From sequence record PP989838.1: a stretch of 64,000 nt of DNA. The stretch is one strand, 5' to 3'. Source of the stretch: Escherichia phage VTCCBPA_211. The notes below the pieces were generated by a model. It was not told the DNA's origin and did not search any database. It was given only the letters and a program-made list of their open reading frames with translations. Positions 9,380 through 37,227 of this stretch are shown one piece after another. A program made the position numbers and the translations under genes. Numbering within the stretch: the stretch's first letter is position 1; each line of letters opens with the position of its first letter.

Positions 9380-9456
9380 GCGCCCTTAGTTCAATTGGAC
9401 AGAACATCGGATTTCTAATCCGTCGGTTACAGGTTCGAATCCTGTAGGGTGCGCCA
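9380..9456 (+). tRNA. tRNA-Arg (anticodon UCU, reads AGA), CCA encoded
   Basis: Manual cloverleaf: acceptor GCGCCCT/AGGGTGC, D arm GTTC/GAAC, anticodon loop TTTCTAA, T arm ACAGG-TTCGAAT-CCTGT, 3' GCCA. Confidence 0.9.
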
Positions 9457-22386: not shown

Positions 22387-23634
22387 ATGTCAAAGATCAT
22401 TTTGGGAGACACAGGTTGTAAGGAATGTATCTCTCATGGTCGTGATAAAACCCACAACCACATGATTCTCTTCCGTAACGAAGAGACTGGTGAGGAGTGG
22501 GGAAGTTGTAACCGTTGTGGGAATTACGAAGTGTTCGAAAAGGGCACTACACCTACTCCAAACGAGAAGAAAGAGTTATCCCCTGAAGAGTTGAGAGAAG
22601 TCTTAGATGATTGCTTAGAGCTTCCTCAGGGTGAACTTACTCGCCGTTTAATCCCTAAAGCTGTATCAGAGCGGTTTGAGTGTCGTATTGGCCTCAGTCA
22701 AACTGATGGTCAGACACCAGACAGTTACTTCTTTCCTCGTGAACGTGATGGAAACATTGTCGGATACGAGGTTAAGCTGCTAGATAGTAAGAAGTTCTAT
22801 TACGTCGGCAGTGTGAAAGAAGCAGATTTGTTCGGTATGGCACAAGCTCAACGTGGAGATGTGTACAACAAGAAGCTGTTCATTTTTGAAGACCCGCTAT
22901 CCTGTATGTCAGGTTTCCATGTCCTTACAGCTTTTACAAATGCAACAAATATTAAACCAGCATGTGTTTCTTTACCGTTCGGTGCAGGTTCAATCTCTTC
23001 TGTGTTGTCTCGTAACCGAGACTTCGTAAATGGTTTTGAGGAGGTTGTGCTCTGCATGGACAACGATGATGCAGGTGAGATAGCTTTAACAAAAGGTCGT
23101 TCTTTATTCCCTCATGTTAAGTTTGCTCGTATTCCTAAAGGAACTTTCCCATACAACGGTGTGGAGAAAGAGATTAAGGATGCGAATGACATGCTTCTGT
23201 CTGGTCGTGGTCAAGAGTTATTCAACATTCTCAAGTACTCAGCAAAGCGGGAATCTCCTGCTGGAGCTGTAACAATCTTTGATTGTCTTGATGATGCTCT
23301 GAAGAAAGCGGAGTGGGGTATCCCATATCCGTGGAAGACTCTGAATGAGATGACCTTCGGTATTCGATGGGGAGAGGTGGTAGCAATTGGTGGTGGAGTA
23401 GGGAGTGGTAAAACACTCATTGCTCACGAGCTGGTTGCTCATCTGTGCTTAGAGCATGGTTTTAATGGAGGTGGCTTCTTCTTGGAAGAGAAGGTAGGCA
23501 TGTCTGTTAAGAACATTGCTGGTAAGTCAGCATCAATTCCTTTCCACCGACCTGATGTTGAATATGATGAGGAGGATTTGCGTAATGAAGCACTTCGTTA
23601 TGCAGACAAATTCTTCTTGTATGACAACTTCGGT
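22387..23634 (+). CDS. DNA primase/helicase (T7 gp4-like), exon 1
   Basis: Zn finger CKEC..CNRC, TOPRIM VLCMDNDDAGE, Walker A GGGVGSGKT; ends ..LYDNFG at a U-G splice-site pairing. Confidence 0.85.
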
Positions 23635-24355
23635 TAACACAATGGCCGAAGTAAAACTAGGTGAATTCAGGGAAAGCTAAGTCGAAAGATATGCCAATCC
23701 TGAGCGAAGCCCTTCTCCTCCTATAGCACAAGGAGGTAATTCATGAAACGAATCACAGGATACGAAAACTACACCATTTCTGAAAACGGTGAGGTTTTTA
23801 ATAACAGAGGTGCTCAATTAAAACCTTTTGTGAATAAAGGCAGAAATGAGTACTTGAGAGTGACACTAAGCTGTAGAGGGAAATCTAAACATTTTCTTGT
23901 TCACAGATTGGTTGCTCAAGAATACCTTAAAGATTTTAACCCGAATCTCCAAGTAGACCACATGGATGGTGACAGTAGAAACAACCACCACTCAAACCTC
24001 CAAATGGTTACTTGCAAAGAAAATAACTCACTTGCTTCACAAAGAGAGTGGGAAAAGGGTGGTAATCAAAAACATTCTGATGATACAGTAAGGGAGGCCA
24101 TAAGGCTTTCTCTAGATATGTCAACAGATAAGGTTGGGGAATTACTAGGTATCTCAGGGAGACAAGTCAGACGATACAGAAGTTTGACAAGTCGAAGATT
24201 TGTTGGAGAAGGGAACGTGCAGAGACTATCCGAAAGGAGTACACTGGAAGCTAATGACAGTGGAAGCGCCTAGCCCCTTAACAGGGTGATGATATAGTCC
24301 AATCCCGTGGGAAACTGCGGGCAGTAGCCATGATGCTACGGGTAAAGGAGTTGCG
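23635..24355 (+). mobile_element. group I intron in the primase/helicase gene
   Basis: P1: exon CTTCGGT pairs with GCCGAAG (U-G at the splice site); starts TAACACAATGG like the polymerase intron; GATATAGTC core; carries an HNH ORF; 3' boundary is a best guess (alternative 24340). Confidence 0.7.
23743..24273 (+). CDS. intron-encoded HNH homing endonuclease (NUMOD4-like N-terminus + HNH, 176 aa)
   Basis: GYENYTISENGEVFN; VHRLVAQEYL..VDHMDGDSRNNHHSNLQ..TCKENN; RBS AAGGAGG. Confidence 0.85.
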   Translation: MKRITGYENYTISENGEVFNNRGAQLKPFVNKGRNEYLRVTLSCRGKSKHFLVHRLVAQEYLKDFNPNLQVDHMDGDSRNNHHSNLQMVTCKENNSLASQREWEKGGNQKHSDDTVREAIRLSLDMSTDKVGELLGISGRQVRRYRSLTSRRFVGEGNVQRLSERSTLEANDSGSA

Positions 24356-24916
24356 TCCTTTATTGAATTATTGCAAAATGAATGGGAAGACATTAAACAG
24401 TGTATCCGTTTCTGGGTAGTTGAAAACCAGTGTAAGTTCATCATCCTTGATAACATTACCGCTCTGGTGTCTCATTTAACACCTTCAGAGATTAACACTG
24501 AAATCAGTAAGATTGCTTCCGAGCTTGCTGGTATGTGTAAAGAGTTAGACTTTACCGCTTTCGTGCTATCTCACCTTAATGCTCCGGCAGGTGGTGCTCC
24601 TCATGAAGAAGGTGGACAGGTACGTGAAGTACAGTTCACTGGCTCTCGTTCTCTTATGCGTTGGTGTCAGTGTATCATTGGCTTTGAGCGTGACAAGCAA
24701 GCTGACGGCTTAGCTAAGAACCTCTCAGTCATTCGATTACTGAAAGAACGTAACTACGGTCAGACAGGTGTATGTTATACTAAGTATATCAGTGAAACCG
24801 GTAGACTTGTAGAAAGGGAAGACTTTGAAGTTGATGAAGATAATCCATTCGTTTTAACTAACGGAGAGGATGCAGCTTCTCTCGTCAACCAAGCAGATGG
24901 AGCTTCACCGTGGTAA
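24356..24916 (+). CDS. DNA primase/helicase, exon 2
   Basis: Frame open from 24293; junction gives [26 protein letters not shown], aligning with T7 gp4 LYDSF..DVIILDHIS. Confidence 0.75.
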
Positions 24917-25467
24917 AGAAAAAGAAGAAAGTGTTTGCATTCGATATCGAGAGTAATGCACTGTACGATGACATAACTAAAGTATGGTGTATTTATATCT
25001 TCGATGTTGAAACTGGTGAAAGGTGGGGCTATCGGCCTCACCAAATTGAAGATGGGATTCGTAAACTTACAGAAGCAGATGTACTGGTGGGTCACAATAT
25101 TATTGACTTCGACCTTTGTGCTCTGAAGAAGATGTATCCCAATCTGATTAACTATCGTTTTAACGTCTTCGACACTTTATGTCTTAGTCGATATCTTAAA
25201 CCTGACCGTATTGGTGACAGTCCTGAGTATCCGAAAGGCGACCCTAGACGTGGCCCAAGAGGTCATGGTTTGAAGCAGTGGGGTGAGTTCTTAGGAGAGC
25301 TTAAGGGCGATTATGGTGAGCAAGAGGAAGCATGGGATGCTTTCACTGAAGATATGTTTACTTATTGTGAACAGGACGTTAACTTAACTGTTAAGGTTTA
25401 TCTTTTCTTGTGTGAGCTCACGGGATTTGACCCTTACGACCCACCTTCATTATATTGGAAAATGTAA
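24910..25467 (+). CDS. stand-alone 3'-5' exonuclease domain of family-A DNA polymerase (185 aa)
   Basis: [10 protein letters not shown] (ExoI), [10 protein letters not shown] (ExoII), YCEQDV (ExoIII), similar to the T7 gp5 N-terminus. Confidence 0.8.
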
Positions 25468-25468
25468 A

Positions 25469-26839
25469 ATGATTGTTATCCCGATTAACCAAATTGAAGA
25501 TAAGGTTGCTCAACAACCTGATATCACTGTTGGTCGTCACTTCATTGAACAGTTGATTAACAACAATTTAGTTCCAGACGGTATCTGTCCCATCATTACT
25601 GGTGGGGCTGTTCGTGATGCTGTTCTTAACAATATAGCACCACATGACATTGATATCTTTATTGTCAGAGGGCAGCTTCCTGCTGGTAGAAACACTTTCA
25701 CATCAACTGACCGTTGGCAAGCTCTTGGAAGAGAGATTGAAAGTAATGTGAAGGAATGGCTAGAGTCGCAAGATATTGAGTATTCATCACTTCTTGCTGA
25801 AGCTACAAACGAATCCTATGCGGGGGGTTCTCAATTAACATTCACTGATATTATTGAGTTTCAGTGGAATGGGGTTCGTATCCAATTCATGTTTAATTAT
25901 CCTACTTCTATTGAAGAGATATTGGATAATTTTCCTATGATGTGCCGTGGTGCGATGACTCTTGACAACCTATTCATGACTCCTCATGGATATTTGGCTA
26001 TGACCGCTCCTTGCCCGGTGGTTGTTTCTAGTCGTGAAATCAGATACGTTCACAAAAAGTGGCCTAATTCACAAGTGTTAAGATTCTCAGCTCCATCTGT
26101 TGCATATCAATATATGGCCCAAACTCGATACCTTCCTACACCTCAGCCAGTTAGTCATCTGGTTAGTGGATTAGGTCAGGTTTCTCTTATTGAGGATACA
26201 ACAAGTGCTCAATATTGTGTTAACCGAGACATGAGTCTATTCTTTGGAATCCCTTATGAAGAGATTCTATTAATGTCAAGCGTTCACGGGTCTGGTCAGA
26301 TTAGTGCGTATTGGTCTGAAGGGTTGACAAATTTAACGACTAACACGGGTGGTGATCTGCTTGGTCGAGAAGATGAACCTAACCGACACAATGCAATTGA
26401 AGGGGTTTTTGTAGCCCCTGCAATGCGTAGAGCACAAGAGTCACGAAGAGTAAGCCCTACTCGTAGAGCATCTTTTGAAGAAGCTCTCGGTGTTACAAGT
26501 GATTCTATGGAGCGATGGATGGCTAGACCCTCTCGTGGTCGACCAAATGGTTTAACTGTTAGCGCACGTCAGTTCTCTGGTCAGGGTTTTGCTGTCGGTG
26601 ATATCAACGCACCTGTTAGGGCTGTGTGGACTGATGAAGGTGTGGCCCAAGATGTGGTAGGCAGTCTCTCCGATCTTGATACTCCTTCTCATGAGGAACT
26701 CGCTGAGGCTGTCAGCCGCAATCTCGCTGATCGCTTTATTACTAACAACCCTGAAGTATTAGAACCTCAAACCCGTACAGTTCGGTTTGCTGATGAAGCG
26801 GGTCGTGGAATCTCTTTTGACGTAGAAACAAATAACTAA
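25469..26839 (+). CDS. nucleotidyltransferase with CCA-adding/poly(A)-polymerase-like head motif (456 aa)
   Basis: ITGGAVRDAVLNNIAPHDIDIFIV (GGxVRD..DxD); internal ATG of track ORF 25412-26839, 1 nt after the upstream stop. Confidence 0.65.
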   Translation: MIVIPINQIEDKVAQQPDITVGRHFIEQLINNNLVPDGICPIITGGAVRDAVLNNIAPHDIDIFIVRGQLPAGRNTFTSTDRWQALGREIESNVKEWLESQDIEYSSLLAEATNESYAGGSQLTFTDIIEFQWNGVRIQFMFNYPTSIEEILDNFPMMCRGAMTLDNLFMTPHGYLAMTAPCPVVVSSREIRYVHKKWPNSQVLRFSAPSVAYQYMAQTRYLPTPQPVSHLVSGLGQVSLIEDTTSAQYCVNRDMSLFFGIPYEEILLMSSVHGSGQISAYWSEGLTNLTTNTGGDLLGREDEPNRHNAIEGVFVAPAMRRAQESRRVSPTRRASFEEALGVTSDSMERWMARPSRGRPNGLTVSARQFSGQGFAVGDINAPVRAVWTDEGVAQDVVGSLSDLDTPSHEELAEAVSRNLADRFITNNPEVLEPQTRTVRFADEAGRGISFDVETNN

Positions 26840-26848
26840 GGAATAAGA

Positions 26849-27382
26849 ATGAGTTTACTAGGAAGTATTGAACTGCACGATGTAATTGACAATGGCTATC
26901 TGAATGCGGAGCATAAATATGTTAACGCTGCTAGTGTGGATATCCGTATTGGTGATACTATCCTTGTTGAAGAACAGGCTGATGGCATCGTTGATATTGA
27001 TGCGAAAGAGAATCTTCAGTGGAAGGAAGTAAAGATTCCTGAAGAGGGTTTGGTTATCACTCCGGGTCAGTTCTTCTTGGCTCACTCCATGGAGGAGTTT
27101 AATCTTCCAGATAACATCTCAAGTCTGTTTGTCCTACGTTCATCTATGGCTCGTTGTGGTTTGAACCACCTCCACGCCGGGTGGGCAGACGCAGGGTTTA
27201 ACAGCAGTAAGCTGACATTTGAGTTCCATAACGTAACCAAGCATCATAGCTTACGAGTTCGTGCTGGTATGCGTGTTGGTCAGATGGTGATGTTTGAGCA
27301 CTCTCATGCAGGGGAACATTCCTATGCAGTGAAGGGTCGTTATAATAACTCTGAAGGTGTAGTTGCATCTAAAGGTGTGTAA
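26849..27382 (+). CDS. dcd: dCTP deaminase
   Basis: SVDIRIGD, RSSMARCGL, GWADAGF..LTFEFHN, RAGMRVGQ, aligns by eye with E. coli Dcd. Confidence 0.85.
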   Translation: MSLLGSIELHDVIDNGYLNAEHKYVNAASVDIRIGDTILVEEQADGIVDIDAKENLQWKEVKIPEEGLVITPGQFFLAHSMEEFNLPDNISSLFVLRSSMARCGLNHLHAGWADAGFNSSKLTFEFHNVTKHHSLRVRAGMRVGQMVMFEHSHAGEHSYAVKGRYNNSEGVVASKGV

Positions 27383-28273: not shown

Positions 28274-28603
28274 ATGTTAGATTTGAGTAAAGTGGCCCCG
28301 CCCACTGAAGAGATTACAAAATCCAAGGTGATGCAACAGTTTTATCATCGTGATATGCTTGGTCGCTTTATCAAGAATCGTGATGTTGTTGCTTGGTCTA
28401 TTGGTAATCAGGGGTATCTGTTGAAGGTTCTTCAGGTTACAGGTTCAACTGCTAAGCGAGTTAAGGTGTATGACCCTGAAATGGGGCGTTCTAAGTCAGT
28501 AGACCCACAGAACTGCATCGTAATTACCCAGCAGGTAATGGATAATATTGCACGTAACGTTGCTAACTCAGTTGAACTTGATGGAGAAAACCCAAATGCA
28601 TAA
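28274..28603 (+). CDS. hypothetical protein (109 aa)
   Basis: RBS CAGGAGAG; track ORF. Confidence 0.65.
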   Translation: MLDLSKVAPPTEEITKSKVMQQFYHRDMLGRFIKNRDVVAWSIGNQGYLLKVLQVTGSTAKRVKVYDPEMGRSKSVDPQNCIVITQQVMDNIARNVANSVELDGENPNA

Positions 28604-29159
28604 GAATGTCTTTGATTTACCTGAGATTGGTCGTGACAGTTATAGCATGTTAGACCGGTCCGACCTATCAATCTCTCGCCTTGAAACGATGCAAGGTATG
28701 ATTAGTGGAAACAGCCTAGAACACATCCTGAGCTGCTTACAAGCTAACATGGAACTCTTGCATATCAAAGCTAAAAACTACCACTGGAACGTCTCTGGTG
28801 CAGGATTTCAGGGTGTTCATGGTATGTTTGACGAGCTGGAAGATTACGCACGACAGGTAGGAGATCGTATTGCTGAACGTATGCGTTACCACTGTGTTAA
28901 AGTGGATGCTACAGCAGCTAACTACCTCTCTCATGCTTGGTTCTCAGAGGGTAATGCTGATCTAGACATGGACGGTATGCTCTCTGATATGTGCATGACC
29001 TTGATGTGTATTATTGAGAAGATGGATGAGTTTGATGGCGATTTAGCCACCTACCCTGTCGATCAGAGTATGCTTCAAGAAATTAATGAAGGTCTTGGCA
29101 AGTATTGCTACTTCGTCAAGAGCAACATGTCCCACTCAAGTGGTGATGTGTCTTACTAA
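28596..29159 (+). CDS. Dps/ferritin-like protein (187 aa)
   Basis: LHIKAKNYHWNVSGAGFQGVHGMFDE..DRIAERMR matches the Dps helix A/B signature; internal ATG of track ORF 28548-29159. Confidence 0.7.
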   Translation: MHKNVFDLPEIGRDSYSMLDRSDLSISRLETMQGMISGNSLEHILSCLQANMELLHIKAKNYHWNVSGAGFQGVHGMFDELEDYARQVGDRIAERMRYHCVKVDATAANYLSHAWFSEGNADLDMDGMLSDMCMTLMCIIEKMDEFDGDLATYPVDQSMLQEINEGLGKYCYFVKSNMSHSSGDVSY

Positions 29160-29901: not shown

Positions 29902-30558
29902 ATGAATGAACAATTACAAGCAACATTAATCGAAGCTATGGGAAGTGATCGTAGCGTAGTAAACGCAGCTCGAGTTTCCTTTGGCGTAACCCGTGAAGGT
30001 GATTTAAATGAACGTGATGAACGTCTCATCAACTTCCTCGCAAGAGAGAAGCATGTTACTCCATTCCGACACCCACAAGTCAGTTTCCGATGCAAAGCAC
30101 CTATCGCAATTGCGAGACAGTTGGGCAAGCATCAGGTTGGATTCTCGTGGAACGAAATGTCCCGGCGGTATAAAGATGGAGCAGTTGAAGTCTTCATCCC
30201 TAAAGAGATTTTTGCGAGACCTTCGGACCTCCATGCAGGTTCAGGGGTTCAACTCATCGATGGAGAACGAGCTGAAGCGTTAATGTTGATTAATGATGCA
30301 TATGAAGCTTCTCTAGCAGCATATGACAAGTTGATTGAATTCATTGCACCAGAGCAAGCTCGATTTGTTCTTCCTCAGGGGATGATCACTGAGTGGGTAT
30401 GGACTGGTTCTTTGTATGGCTGGTTTGAGTTATGTCGTCAGCGACTCTCCTCTCACGCTCAATATGAAGTTCGAGTGTTTGCTAAATCTCTGGATGAAGA
30501 GATGGCTAAACTTTACCCAATCTCATGGGCAGCTCTGAAGAAAACTTTGGAGAATTAA
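29902..30558 (+). CDS. thyX: flavin-dependent thymidylate synthase
   Basis: TPFRHPQVSF.., KHQVGFSWNEMSRRY (ThyX RHRxxSxxxxSxRY-type motif). Confidence 0.85.
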   Translation: MNEQLQATLIEAMGSDRSVVNAARVSFGVTREGDLNERDERLINFLAREKHVTPFRHPQVSFRCKAPIAIARQLGKHQVGFSWNEMSRRYKDGAVEVFIPKEIFARPSDLHAGSGVQLIDGERAEALMLINDAYEASLAAYDKLIEFIAPEQARFVLPQGMITEWVWTGSLYGWFELCRQRLSSHAQYEVRVFAKSLDEEMAKLYPISWAALKKTLEN

Positions 30559-34694: not shown

Positions 34695-36040
34695 GTGAGC
34701 AACCCGGACGCTCTTCCATTTTTGACAGAGATGACTGTCGCTGATATAATCTCTAAGCAAGCAAAGCACGGAGTGAGTTTCAACCGAAGAAATGCTCGGT
34801 GGTATGTTCACCTCCTTAAAGAGATTATTGTTAATATTGACAGAGAGTTGATTCCTCTCTTACCTAAGATGAGATTAGACGGCTCTACTTATATGAAGCC
34901 GTTTAAGAAGTCTGGAGCTTTACAGAAGTGGCCTCAAGCTTATTGTGATAGGGTTGGGCTGAAGAGAGAAGATATTGGTGGAGCTTTCACCTGTGTCGAA
35001 TATGTAGACTTTGACCCATCGAAAGATGCACGAGTTAAAGAAGCTCTTATGGATGAGGGCTTTCTTCCTCCAGAGTTTAATGTATCTAAGAAGCCTTGGA
35101 ATACTTTCGAAATTAAGAAAGATATGAGAAAGTATGGAACATACCAAGCATGGTATACTGCTTGGATGCGAGGCAATGCTAAGCAGAAGCAGACAGCCGA
35201 GATGGTTGACGCTGATATTAAGAAGTTCTTAGAAAAGCATTTCAGGTTTAAAACTAAGAACTATATGAAGGCTTACGTATTTGGTTTGGGATTAAACCCT
35301 AATCGTCGTAATCCTGTAACGTTTGATGAGATTAAGAAAGCGCTAGCCACATCAAACAAGTGGCCTACAGCTCCTACAAACCTCGAGGAGACTCTTGAAG
35401 AAGGGTTAGGGGGTGAGCTAGGGAGTGTCGGAAGTTTGCTTAAGAGACGCGTTGTAGCGGCTCACAGGCTAGGTCTTATCAGTGGACTTATAGCAAAGGA
35501 ACGCGAAGATGGTAAACTTTCGGCAGAAGCTAACAGCTGCGCTACGCCGACTTTTCGATTCAAACATCGTATCGTGGTTAATATTCCCTCCCGTGGTCTG
35601 TTTGGTCACGAGTGTCGCAGTTTGTTTGAGTCTGACTATAACTCAGACAGTGATCACTCTCGTCCTTTCGTTATTACTAACGCTGTTCCTGATGGTTGTT
35701 ATATACGAAAAGGTACTAACGTAATTTACGAGAAAGGTAAGCCGGGGAAGAAAGACAAACCTGTAGGCGCTTACAAATATTACATACCCGCTGGTAAAGA
35801 AGTATTCTTAGGGTATGATGGTTCTGGACTTGAACTTCGTATGTTAGTGCATTATCTTGTGAAAGAGTGCCTTGACATGATGGAAGAAGCCAAAGCAGAG
35901 AACGATAAAATTAAGTATCTAAGGGCTGAGAAAGGTTTAGAGGCTGCTTATACTTATCGAGAGGTTCTTCTCTCAGGTGATATCCATTCCCACAACCAGA
36001 AACTAGCTGGCCTACCAACTAGAGATAATGCAAAGACGTT
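34695..36040 (+). CDS. family-A DNA polymerase (polymerase domain), exon 1, GTG start
   Basis: RBS AAAGGAG; ends ..LPTRDNAKT(F), the first half of motif B (RxxAKxxxYGxxYG). Confidence 0.85.
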
Positions 36041-36728
36041 TAACACAATGGGCGTCTATAAATTCCTTTAATTCGGTGGACATCTAGAACAGATAATACC
36101 GAGCCAAGCCATCCAATCTGCCTTGAAGACAAGGAGGTGGATTATGATTTGCAGGATTTGTAAAGAAGATAAAAGCGAAGACAATTTCCACAGAAACAGA
36201 ACAAACGTGACTGGACTAGACTACAGGTGTAAAGCTTGTAGGAGAGAAGAAGCACGAATTGGAAGAGAGAGCAATTACTTCCAACACTACTGTAGAGGAA
36301 AGAAATCTGAATGTAAGATAAAGGGTTATGATTTTGACTTAACTCCAGAGTTCTTAGAAGAGATTTGGACAGGATATTGTCCAATATTTGGTGTAGAAAT
36401 CTCAAGAGCTTCGGAAGGAAGAGGATCTCACAACTCAGCACATTTGGACAGAATAGATTCAAGTAAGGGTTACCTAATAGGTAACGTATCTTGGATTAGC
36501 GGCAGAGCAAACCGTATAAAATATGATGCTACTGCTAAAGAGCTTAGATCTATTGCAGATTGGATGGAAGGTGTAACGACTAGTCGTGATGAGTTTAGCG
36601 ACGTAGGGCCAAGCGGCTCGAAACAAGGAACCTCTTAAAAGAGGAAGAGATAGTCTGCTCTGCATGGGGACATGCAGCAGTTCATAAGAGAACGGGGGGA
36701 GTGGTAGCGTACTCCCTTGAACATCAGG
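36041..36728 (+). mobile_element. group I intron in DNA polymerase motif B (T4 td-like core)
   Basis: P1: exon AGACGTT pairs with GGCGTCT; starts TAACACAATGG; ATAGTCTGCTCTGCATGGGGACATGCAGC nearly identical to the T4 td intron core as I recall it; ends ..GAACATCAGG. Confidence 0.8.
36144..36638 (+). CDS. intron-encoded HNH homing endonuclease (164 aa)
   Basis: RBS AAGGAGGTGG; N-terminal CxxC..CxxC; HNSAHLDRIDSSKGYLIGNVSWISGRANRIK. Confidence 0.85.
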   Translation: MICRICKEDKSEDNFHRNRTNVTGLDYRCKACRREEARIGRESNYFQHYCRGKKSECKIKGYDFDLTPEFLEEIWTGYCPIFGVEISRASEGRGSHNSAHLDRIDSSKGYLIGNVSWISGRANRIKYDATAKELRSIADWMEGVTTSRDEFSDVGPSGSKQGTS

Positions 36729-37227
36729 TATCTATGGATTTCTATATGGGGCAGGCGCAGCTAAGATTGGAGAGATTGTTGGAGGAGGCGCTCAAGAGGG
36801 TGAAATTCTCAGAGAACGTTTCTTAGCAGAATGCCCTTGTATCCCAATTGTCTTGGAGAGAGTACAAGCTCGTGCAGAAACAGGCACTCTTGAAGGTGTG
36901 GATGGTCGTAAGTTGACCATGAGACGGGATGCCACTGGTAAAGTTATGGTTCATAAAGCACTAAACACTTTACTTCAGAGTGCGGGTGCTATTGTCATGA
37001 AATATTCTATTCTCTTCACAAACAAGTGGGTAGATCAGCAGAACATTAGGGGTAACAAAGTAATTGACTACCATGATGAAGCTCAGTGGTCTGTTAACCG
37101 TAACGATGTTGATAAGATGAAAAAGATAGCTGAGACTTGTGTCAAGAAGGCGGGTGAGTACCTAAACATGCACTGTGAGCTAGCTTCTGATTGTAAAATC
37201 GGACTGAATTGGATGCAAACTCACTAA
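36729..37227 (+). CDS. family-A DNA polymerase, exon 2
   Basis: Splice restores RDNAKTF-IYGFLYGAGAAKIG (motif B); then motif C region VIDYHDEAQW; total 614 aa in frame. Confidence 0.85.

Follow-up and report, generated by a model that had tools for sequence, protein, structure and literature searches.

The gene under study lies at positions 25469..26839 on the plus strand of a window of 64,000 nucleotides, the whole stretch of DNA that was analyzed, from the phiEco32-like Kuravirus Escherichia phage VTCCBPA_211 (PP989838.1). It is a complete coding sequence for 456 amino acids plus stop, belongs to PHROG 12715 and was already labeled "nucleotidyltransferase" in GenBank. The open reading frame list, the family HMM, the orthologues, and dN/dS ratios all support it. 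In the open reading frame list, the frame is given as 25412..26839 and begins at an upstream GTG. The ATG at 25469, which had been taken as the start in the original prediction, is the start in every annotated orthologue and fits the family-wide conserved N-terminus MI.IP. From this start, residues 1-456 matched positions 1-457 of the phrog_12715 HMM over the full length (E=4e-260). Kuravirus orthologues are 94-96% identical, and the gene is under purifying selection, with dN/dS below 1 in nearly all regions and comparisons. No promoter or terminator signals above chance were found in or around the gene, and the motif TAATGTATA, which we take to be the phiEco32 middle/late promoter consensus, is absent from its neighborhood. 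One peptide of the nucleotidyltransferase has been detected in a preparation of phage SU10 (PMC4281155).

Directly upstream, at 24910..25467 on the plus strand, is the gene of a DNA polymerase A 3'-5' exonuclease subunit (Pfam DNA_pol_A_exo1; phrog_38876, phrog_403), the TAA stop of which is located one base before the nucleotidyltransferase start. Two genes upstream, at 22387..24916 on the plus strand, a primase/helicase gene was recognized by tblastn with the SU10 protein and from annotations; it is interrupted by an insert that bears an HNH endonuclease. The next gene downstream, at 26849..27382 on the plus strand, encodes a dCTP deaminase (Pfam DCD, E=3.7e-34). The order primase/helicase, exonuclease subunit, nucleotidyltransferase, dCTP deaminase is found in 9/9 loci with adequate flanks, down to 25-30% identity. 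In four loci, the start is only 0-2 bases past the exonuclease stop, and the gap is wider in more distant relatives. That this is a core gene of the operon for DNA replication and nucleotide metabolism in phiEco32-like podophages is well supported. As the exonuclease domain is encoded separately, as a protein of 185 aa, the question arose of whether the nucleotidyltransferase gene supplies the missing DNA polymerase, which is not the case, as a Pol A polymerase gene exists at 34695-37224. We also considered an obligate partnership with the split exonuclease subunit, an idea that is weakened by Vibrio phage Vp_R1, which has a 50%-identical split subunit without such a gene adjacent to it.

PHROG 12715, of which the protein represents the founding type, is a small family that is restricted to phages, and its architecture of a head, a lineage-specific helical extension, and a variable tail is well supported. 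Among 1.84 billion proteins, the family comprised 32 clusters, all from phages; a second homologue search with a diverse alignment recovered nothing beyond the family, and IMG/VR contributed 6 loci only. All 97 records of Gordonclarkvirinae that were found contain the gene, and a tblastn search with two distant family members as queries recovered the same 97.

An AlphaFold model of the full-length protein, based on 21 close homologues, was unreliable throughout (pLDDT 32.7), whereas the model of aa 1-300, based on 27 diverse members, reached a pLDDT of 86.6. The conserved core (aa 1-199; 25469..26065, plus strand) consists of N-terminal helices and a Pol-beta-type head and ends in a helix with the pattern R-[DE]-x-x-Y-x-x-K-K-W-P; it is delimited by the alignment, by pLDDT values mostly above 90, and by dN/dS ratios of 0.10-0.16. 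In the most distant relatives, only this part, from aa 1 to about 210, can be aligned. The core is followed by a helical extension (aa 200-300; 26066..26368, plus strand; pLDDT 73-93, dN/dS 0.16-0.47) with a [WY]-S-x-G-L motif near aa 282. According to the alignment, this extension is confined to Gordonclarkvirinae and the uncultured relatives closest to them; it aligns in P0045-P0053, ECBP2, and EP335 and is not alignable in shorter relatives. The C-terminal tail (aa 301-456; 26369..26836, plus strand) has an R/S-rich segment, a semi-conserved stretch at aa ~316-342 (PAMRRAQESRRVSPTRRASFEEALG) and an acidic end, and varies between genera, with indels and low conservation (dN/dS 0.17-0.5). Composition, charge, and indels suggest that this tail is probably disordered. 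The R/S/E-rich, low-complexity end that had been described earlier is only in part what we found: residues ~316-360 are indeed R/S-rich and the last ~70 are acidic, but the entropy is moderate (3.5-3.7 bits per 30 aa). In sequence searches, residues 200-456 had no match outside the PHROG 12715 family.

The GGxVRD..DxD signature on which the original prediction was based is intact, as residues 43-66 are exactly the reported sequence, ITGGAVRDAVLNNIAPHDIDIFIV, with the motif GGAVRD…DIDIF. Motif A proper (aa 44-66, TGGAVRDAVLNNIAPHDIDIFIV; 25598..25666, plus strand) contains the family invariants and could be aligned to the motif A of class II enzymes and to that of Gad2. The Pol-beta superfamily pattern, hG[GS] with DxD on the next strand, is present, as are the GGxVRD and DxD elements that define class II motif A (residues 45-62). 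In the model, a strand (39-44) is followed by G45-G46, a helix (46-53), and a further strand (61-67) with D60 and D62. Residues G45, G46, R49, D50, D60, and D62 are invariant in 27 sequences, down to ~23% identity.

As to the catalytic carboxylates, the alignment of which had been suggested as a check, both carboxylates of motif A align with those of class II enzymes, but the third is not placeable from sequence. Candidates for a third metal ligand are found in a beta-hairpin (aa 123-146; 25835..25906, plus strand; modeled with DSSP strands at 125-133 and 136-146), which contains the conserved positions D/E127 and Q139. D/E127 is always acidic, but it is on the partner strand of the hairpin. 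By strand order and topology, the alignment and the model together indicate that the invariant Q139 may occupy the position of E79 in BstCCA. In Gad2 relatives, the corresponding strand, which shares the pattern I-Q-x-[MI] including the Gln, has mostly Gln and once Glu, as judged by eye.

This possible Gln at the third carboxylate position would fit a nucleotide-binding pseudoenzyme or replisome scaffold, the tail of which binds partners, and which does not catalyze any transfer. The same can be said of the acidic core, whose net charge of -10 is unusual in a nucleic-acid enzyme, of the long variable tail with its semi-conserved short motifs, and of the start within 2 bases of the exonuclease stop in Gordonclarkvirinae loci, which suggests co-translation. 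However, the invariance of the GG, R-D, and D-x-D residues at ~23% identity argues for chemistry at this site, and Gad2 has a biological effect even though its relatives also mostly carry Gln at this position. We give a scaffold function little credence.

That the N-terminus is a class II-type head, as found in CCA-adding enzymes and poly(A) polymerases, is well supported, and on this point structure matches and profile comparisons bear out what had been predicted. The best solved-structure matches were CCA-adding, A-adding, and poly(A) enzymes, the named class II relatives being BstCCA (1miv), the A. aeolicus A-adding enzyme (4wby), and E. coli PcnB (3aql). The class II head-domain fold is present, with a superposition that covers only ~143-166 residues. 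Only the head superposes on solved structures, in agreement with the earlier claim that the remainder of the protein is unrelated to the usual neck, body, and tail. The family profile matched a solved CCA-adding enzyme with E=0.002, and hhalign of the family against the class II alignment gave 78% probability (P=1.8e-5), as compared to P=0.05-0.34 for reversed-sequence controls. When single sequences of E. coli Cca, LKD16 ORF16, or one Gad2 were used in hhalign, motif A alone was aligned. The Pfam profile PolyA_pol (PF01743) matched the single sequence with E=0.02 and 15.7 bits, below the gathering cutoff of 23, and relatives gave 13.5-21.9 bits or no match, so that every member tested remained below the threshold. 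A phmmer search against the PDB returned only noise, and a search of NCBIfam gave no match. The phage protein and the class II enzymes have motif A in common, with the differences that the phage protein has an N-terminal extension of ~25 residues, a much longer helix after the DxD strand (aa 80-100), and an unrelated C-terminal part of 250 aa. We regard it as a diverged form of an established kind of nucleotidyltransferase.

By profile comparison, the protein appears about equidistant from the class II tRNA enzymes, from Gad2, and from the small nucleotidyltransferases that T7-like phages encode beside helicases. Gad2 is an anti-Gabija protein of SPbeta-like phages with an unsolved mechanism (PMC12904381), and it also is a phage-encoded, divergent class II-type head. 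A comparison of the family with Gad2 by hhalign gave 84.6-87.8% probability with E-values of 3-7e-6 (84.6% and E=6.9e-6 over 96 columns), and in greedy mode, the probability for class II enzymes was equal to that of the Gad2 comparison. The common alignment ranges from motif A to an F-x-x-x-C-x-G strand; the greedy alignment of 204 columns extends as far as a helix with PVV-S-R…Y…K-[WY] and takes in the PVV-S-R…Y…K-W motif of the family (reversed control P=0.05). Precomputed Pfam matches to Gad2 (PF26128) were recorded for 30/44 close homologues, the one looked up, P0031, being flagged "weak", whereas the nearest homologue, P0001, and the distant members had no such record. In sequence-profile scoring, the protein encoded in the window reached only 3-4 bits with the Gad2 profile versus ~10 bits with the class II profile, and membership in Gad2 was consequently not adopted. 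The profile data point to a relationship with Gad2 at the superfamily level only.

Several details of the Gad2 alignment differ from one family to the other. Of the Gad2 invariants, P146, R152, and Y156 align in the greedy comparison with P183, R189, and Y193, which are conserved in PHROG 12715. F106, D107, and T109 of the Gad2 FDFT motif correspond to F-P-M-M, or to M-P-L-I in distant members, so that D107 and T109 are not conserved, and the HEDF motif of Gad2 was not found in the family consensus. Conversely, Gad2 proteins are mostly without the V-R-D of motif A, which PHROG 12715 keeps. Both families vary in their C-terminal parts, and the protein described here lacks the C-terminal domain of Gad2. 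While Gad2 is encoded in a variable anti-defense locus, the gene described here belongs to a core replication operon. A search with PADLOC gave no match for the protein.

The third group of profile neighbors, phrog_1614, consists of "poly A polymerase head" enzymes of ~170-250 aa from T7-like and phiKMV-like podophages, such as LKD16 ORF16. These share the head-only architecture and are, beyond the family itself, the best viral structural neighbors (Foldseek E-values from 2e-8 to 1e-4), but they form a separate PHROG, lack the long tail, and align with aa 34-155 only. The phrog_1614 profile matched our protein with E=9.7e-7, Gad2 with 2.3e-6, E. coli Cca with 4.5e-10, and LKD16 ORF16 with 9.5e-40. 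The LKD16 gene directly follows the replicative helicase gene and overlaps its end. Emajogi gp22, which is probably similar to phrog_1614, immediately precedes the primase/helicase gp23 by its number. Overexpression of this nucleotidyltransferase is cytotoxic. The alternative named with the original prediction, that the protein belongs to a different Pol-beta clade with no tRNA link, thus holds by half: Gad2 and phrog_1614 are profile neighbors at least as close as the class II enzymes, and no tRNA link has been reported for either of them in the literature examined.

The comparison with Gad2 also made it possible to locate the counterparts of class II motifs B and D. Motif B recognizes the ribose and motif D serves as the protein template; together, they govern the choice of NTPs and whether C or A is specified. 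The strand with F-P-x-x-C-R-G (aa 153-165; 25925..25963, plus strand) corresponds to FDFTVCMG in Gad2 and, via Gad2, to RRDFTINA of class II motif B, as derived from hhalign of the family with Gad2, of Gad2 with class II, and from the family alignment. All class II sequences in the alignment have the RRD, but its counterpart here is L-D-N-F-P-M-M-C-R-G, and RRD is not conserved in the family. Likewise, the segment P-C-P-V-V-V-S-S-R-E-I-R-Y-V-H-K-K-W-P (aa 181-199; 26009..26065, plus strand) resembles YPVVSALRVQKYEDKGY of Gad2 in the greedy hhalign and the family alignment, and this Gad2 segment aligns with the EDPLRxLRAxRF helix of class II motif D. The counterpart of the invariant class II E-D…R, assigned via the Gad2 alignment, is therefore C-P-V-V-V-S-S-R, in which the base-reading E-D…R residues are not conserved, and no EDxxR is present in the family consensus.

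These data bear on the suggestion that the enzyme repairs tRNAs of the host or the phage that have been damaged by defense or stress nucleases, either by rebuilding the CCA or by adding the terminal A. The class II signature GGxVRD…DxD in motif A, the closest solved structures, and a phage tRNA gene are in line with such a repair; the predicted tRNA-Arg(UCU) was indeed located at 9380..9456, with a genome-encoded CCA. However, this tRNA brings its own CCA, and E. coli has the Cca enzyme. Motifs B (RRD) and D (EDxxR) are missing from the family, tRNA-binding body and tail domains are absent from the family protein, and the core is acidic. The profile of the true phage tRNA-nucleotidyltransferase family, phrog_2244, gave only E=0.056 over 24 residues, as compared to 1.9e-132 for E. 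coli Cca. As motifs B and D as well as body and tail are absent and PolyA_pol remains below its threshold, the protein does not qualify as a member of the CCA-adding enzymes. The tRNA repair that had been proposed is therefore unlikely, and we would assign it only a very small probability. Even if the protein proves to be an ordinary accessory enzyme, there is a practical consequence: the present database label "class II CCA-adding enzyme domain" is not to be taken to mean tRNA repair.

We tentatively favor a nucleotidyltransferase of the replication module that has the 3' end of a nucleic acid as its target or counters host nucleases, a reading that we consider possible rather than probable. 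In its favor are the fold, the invariant active-site residues, the profile relatives, the gene order, and the resistance of Gordonclarkvirinae to restriction-modification. We infer that the invariant GG, R-D, and D-x-D residues would bind an NTP or dNTP together with metal, and that a nucleotide would be transferred without a template to a 3'-OH. The acceptor would probably be a nucleic-acid end that results from phage DNA replication, which could be a DNA end, a primer, or a replication intermediate. As a consequence, phage DNA might be shielded from host nucleases or be handled differently by them, and the tail could be used for recruitment or regulation. Such an enzyme would functionally resemble the anti-Gabija protein Gad2, but as the mechanism of Gad2 is unsolved, stating that it works like Gad2 explains little. 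Anti-defense genes are usually accessory, whereas this gene is core and syntenic, which counts against the proposed role, and the conserved order within one phage lineage may reflect plain inheritance; the split exonuclease subunit of Vp_R1 has no such neighbor. The acidic core, the possible Gln at the third carboxylate position, and the lack of matches in PADLOC and NCBIfam likewise count against the proposed role.

Alternatively, the protein could be a host-directed RNA enzyme that shuts down host expression, either by tailing host RNAs in the manner of poly(A) polymerases or by blocking tRNAs in the manner of MenT-type toxins. The toxicity of related phage enzymes to cells, namely the Gad2 of SPbetaL7 and Emajogi gp22, would agree with this. 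We nevertheless regard such a function as doubtful, as the neck motifs of poly(A) polymerases and CCA-adding enzymes are missing, the core is acidic, and the gene is part of a replication operon and not of an early host-takeover region. The looser options named with the original prediction, a tailing of RNAs or a nucleotide signal, may still apply.

Gordonclarkvirinae are unusually resistant to restriction-modification and other tested defenses, and no cause for this is known (PMC11990801). In the 64-kb window, 29 EcoRV and 8 EcoRI sites are left, and site avoidance alone therefore may not explain the resistance. A DNA-modification pathway in which the nucleotidyltransferase would act together with the adjacent dCTP deaminase, as proposed in the BASEL collection paper, would account for the so far unexplained resistance to restriction, and the deaminase gene is adjacent in all nine loci. 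We consider this pathway highly improbable, as dCTP deaminase and ThyX (29902..30558) constitute the ordinary dTTP route, and as palindromes are strongly avoided (663 observed versus 824-1073 expected), which explains part of the resistance. To our knowledge, there is no base-modification pathway with a Pol-beta-type nucleotidyltransferase. Returning to a nucleotidyltransferase of the replication module, it would be a long shot that this core enzyme, alone or with the dCTP deaminase, is behind the resistance of Gordonclarkvirinae to restriction and other DNA-targeting defenses, by a novel kind of nucleotidylation of phage DNA ends, replication intermediates, or a host nuclease. If this were true, the way in which Gad2-type enzymes beat DNA-end-sensing systems such as Gabija would become clear as well.

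Gordonclarkvirinae are common E. coli phages with a broad host range and are used in therapy cocktails. The product of their nucleotidyltransferase gene can be grouped loosely with other head-only nucleotidyltransferases of phages, among which Gad2 is the only member with a known phenotype. As isolates that infect K-12 exist, such as Bas91, the gene offers a usable genetic handle on this group.

The nucleotidyltransferase gene (25469-26839, + strand) lies in a single long open frame (25412-26839) and starts at ATG 25469, one base past the TAA of the preceding gene, which yields a product of 456 aa. This ATG is the annotated start in every orthologue, and the conserved N-terminus MI.IP, common to all 27 aligned family members, begins there. 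The surrounding 8 kb share 93-96% identity with Escherichia phages NJ01, 172-1, SU10, and relatives, phiEco32-like podophages of the genus Kuravirus (subfamily Gordonclarkvirinae). Purifying selection acts on the gene, with dN/dS values of 0.10-0.16 (aa 1-215), 0.16-0.47 (aa 216-300), and 0.17-0.5 (aa 301-456), and one peptide of the SU10 orthologue was detected in a phage preparation (PMC4281155). No promoter or terminator signals above chance were found in or around the gene. In its 3' third (26369-26836), dS was 0.12-0.27 versus 0.31-0.79 in the 5' part, a two- to threefold drop in four pairwise comparisons and a drop of about 1.6-fold in the fifth, suggesting either mosaic recombination or nucleotide-level constraint.

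The head signature GGxVRD..DxD, to which the original prediction had pointed, is present at residues 43-66 (ITGGAVRDAVLNNIAPHDIDIFIV). Because the gene has carried the label nucleotidyltransferase, with a class II CCA-adding-enzyme domain, since 2012-2014, this observation is not new. New here are the failed CCA-adding membership, the limits and architecture of the family, its apparent superfamily tie to the anti-Gabija protein Gad2 and to the small podophage head-only enzymes of phrog_1614, and the depth of synteny.

We do not class the protein as a CCA-adding enzyme because motif B (RRD) and motif D (E-D…R), whose residues are among the invariants of our class II reference alignment (five members), are both missing from the family consensus, the class II body and tail domains are absent from the protein, Pfam PolyA_pol was below cutoff in every family member tested, and phrog_2244, the true phage tRNA nucleotidyltransferases, was barely matched (E=0.056 over 24 residues; 1.9e-132 for E. 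coli Cca). At default stringency, hhalign of the family against class II aligned 26 columns of motif A only (78%, P=1.8e-5), and greedy extension gave almost no confidence. tRNA CCA repair, with the motif A match on its side, is given low weight. The phage tRNA-Arg(UCU) (9380-9456) encodes its own 3' CCA in the genome, as had been noted before, and has been linked to the high AGA codon use of these phages (PMC9965538).

Over its full length, the protein matched phrog_12715 ('nucleotidyltransferase'; E=4e-260). When 1.84 billion representative proteins were searched with a profile, only 32 clusters fell in the family, and these included no canonical CCA-adding enzyme. Only 97 of 50,697 phage records carried a member, all of them Escherichia/Shigella Gordonclarkvirinae, and the same 97 were recovered with this protein or two distant members as query; IMG/VR held 6 loci. 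Family members are 274-482 aa long and can be aligned throughout the family only from aa 1 to about 210; aa 210-300 are common to nearer relatives only, and beyond that both length and sequence change even from one genus to another. In the 27-member alignment, G45, G46, R49, D50, D60, D62, F64, Y117, I128, and Q139 are invariant, and position 127 is D or E in every member.

Pfam PF26128 (Gad2) had a precomputed match for 30 of 44 close homologues, flagged 'weak' in the one inspected. Gad2 of SPbeta-like phages is a predicted nucleotidyltransferase that is toxic in cells (bioRxiv 10.1101/2023.05.01.538930), and its mechanism was still given as unknown in a February 2026 review (PMC12904381). 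With an alignment of nine homologues from the supplement of the former study, hhalign of the family against Gad2 gave 84.6% (E=6.9e-6) over 96 columns and, in greedy mode, 87.8% over 204 columns, pairing C-P-V-V-V-S-S-R-E-I-R-Y-V-H-K-K-W with Gad2 Y-P-V-V-S-A-L-R-V-Q-K-Y-E-D-K-G-Y. Gad2 against class II aligned over 163 columns, with FDFT on RRDFT and LRVxKY on LRAxRF; reversed-sequence controls gave P=0.05-0.34. Plain profile scores temper the suggested Gad2 kinship: the Gad2 profile gave 3-4 bits for our protein and 24 bits for the best family member, and the class II CCA/PAP profile about 10 and 14 bits, respectively. phrog_1614 acts as a hub among these groups, being matched by our protein (9.7e-7), Gad2 (2.3e-6), E. 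coli Cca (4.5e-10), and LKD16 ORF16 (9.5e-40). Judged by these profile comparisons, the family appears to branch separately within the class II-head superfamily, at roughly the same distance from tRNA enzymes, Gad2, and small podophage enzymes, and outside all three groups.

AlphaFold modeled aa 1-300 with pLDDT 86.6 and pTM 0.83 when given a diverse alignment; the full-length protein with close homologues reached pLDDT 32.7. Solved structures matching the aa 1-300 model were E. coli poly(A) polymerase 3aql (9.9), BstCCA 1miv (9.2), A. aeolicus A-adding enzyme 4wby (9.1; 143 residues at 3.4 Å), T. maritima CCA-adding enzyme 3h37 (8.8), and human CCA-adding enzyme 1ou5 (8.4). Because class II structures match and Foldseek agrees, albeit with TM-scores of just 0.3-0.4, the model bears out the view that the N-terminus is class II-like and the remainder unrelated. 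In the viral structure library, the closest structures outside the family were 'poly A polymerase head' proteins, 170-250 aa long, from T7-like and phiKMV-like phages. The predicted hairpin 125-133/136-146 would sit where the E79-bearing hairpin of BstCCA sits. From alignment and model, the invariant polar residue of its second strand, Q139, is the candidate at the place of the third carboxylate, and D/E127 on the first strand apparently lies on the opposite face; by eye, the corresponding I-Q-x-[MI] strand of Gad2 relatives has Gln and once Glu. A non-catalytic scaffold, to be weighed between such a glutamine and the GG, R-D, and both motif-A aspartates, none of which varies in the family alignment, seems to us of modest or low weight.

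The window and 8 further loci with sufficient flanking sequence all keep the order primase/helicase, exonuclease subunit, nucleotidyltransferase, dCTP deaminase, down to uncultured relatives that are 25-32% identical. The phrog_1614 gene of LKD16 overlaps the helicase gene at the latter's end, and in phage Emajogi, the cytotoxic nucleotidyltransferase gp22 is numbered just ahead of the primase/helicase gp23. No such nucleotidyltransferase gene adjoins the split exonuclease subunit of Vibrio phage Vp_R1, which is 50% identical. The classification as a class II-head relative and not a CCA-adding enzyme is solid. Our guess as to function is that the protein would transfer nucleotides template-independently within the replication module, which might keep host nucleases off phage DNA or its intermediates, by whatever means Gad2 does so. 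Host-directed tailing of RNA or blocking of tRNAs, which may be set beside the toxicity of gp22 and Gad2, ranks modest or low.

The BASEL paper (PMC11990801) describes these phages as resisting restriction systems for no known reason and names the nucleotidyltransferase and the dCTP deaminase as candidates for DNA modification. Strong palindrome avoidance also bears on this resistance: the window contains 663 six-base palindromes versus 824 (Markov) or 1073 (zero-order) expected, 13 palindromes are wholly absent, and CGCG, GGCC, and GCGC are depleted; 29 EcoRV and 8 EcoRI sites remain. We assign a DNA-modification pathway low weight.

Several neighboring features were observed alongside. The primase/helicase gene (22387-24916) is split, with SU10 residues 1-416 at 22387-23634 and 417-596 at 24374-24913. 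The 739-bp insert (23635-24373) carries an HNH endonuclease frame (23743-24273) and two Rfam group I intron matches below threshold (32 and 28 bits versus 50; E=3.6e-6 and 7e-5); it is probably a group I intron that houses a homing endonuclease. Likewise, the DNA polymerase A gene (34695-37224) is interrupted at about 36066-36729 (SU10 residues 1-453 at 34695-36065, 94% identity; 450-614 at 36730-37224, only 69%), with an endonuclease VII-like frame (36123-36638, phrog_3322) and a weak group I intron signal (19 bits, E=0.02). Just upstream of the replication genes, 12791-22167 encodes a COOH-NH2 ligase, an amidoligase, a glutamine amidotransferase, a gamma-glutamyl cyclotransferase, and several proteins without Pfam matches, a cluster kept in uncultured relatives (locus L013). 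The 'DNA binding protein' gene (28548-29159, phrog_3636), conserved in the same operon, occupies the gene-order position of a gene at locus L012 whose weak Pfam Ferritin match would make the protein Dps-like.

The tail (aa 301-456) is richer in S, T, N, Q, G, P, and R than the core (0.48 versus 0.40) and is probably disordered; an R/S-rich stretch precedes an acidic end, and the core is acidic as well (net charge -10). Indels distinguish even close relatives, and aa ~316-342 are semi-conserved in three genera. Many relatives (P0047, P0048, P0054, P0056, P0058, P0061, and P0063) carry a Trp or Phe among their final one to three residues (…REVW, …RWQW, …GGWTF, …TWDW, for example), which may recall the aromatic C-terminal residue used for docking by T7 gp2.5 and gp4. 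In the Kuravirus orthologues P0018, P0026, and P0040, the last ~25 residues are swapped for a different ending (…PQVGGELDQLLNSQNIR), as would be expected after a frameshift or indel close to the gene's 3' end.
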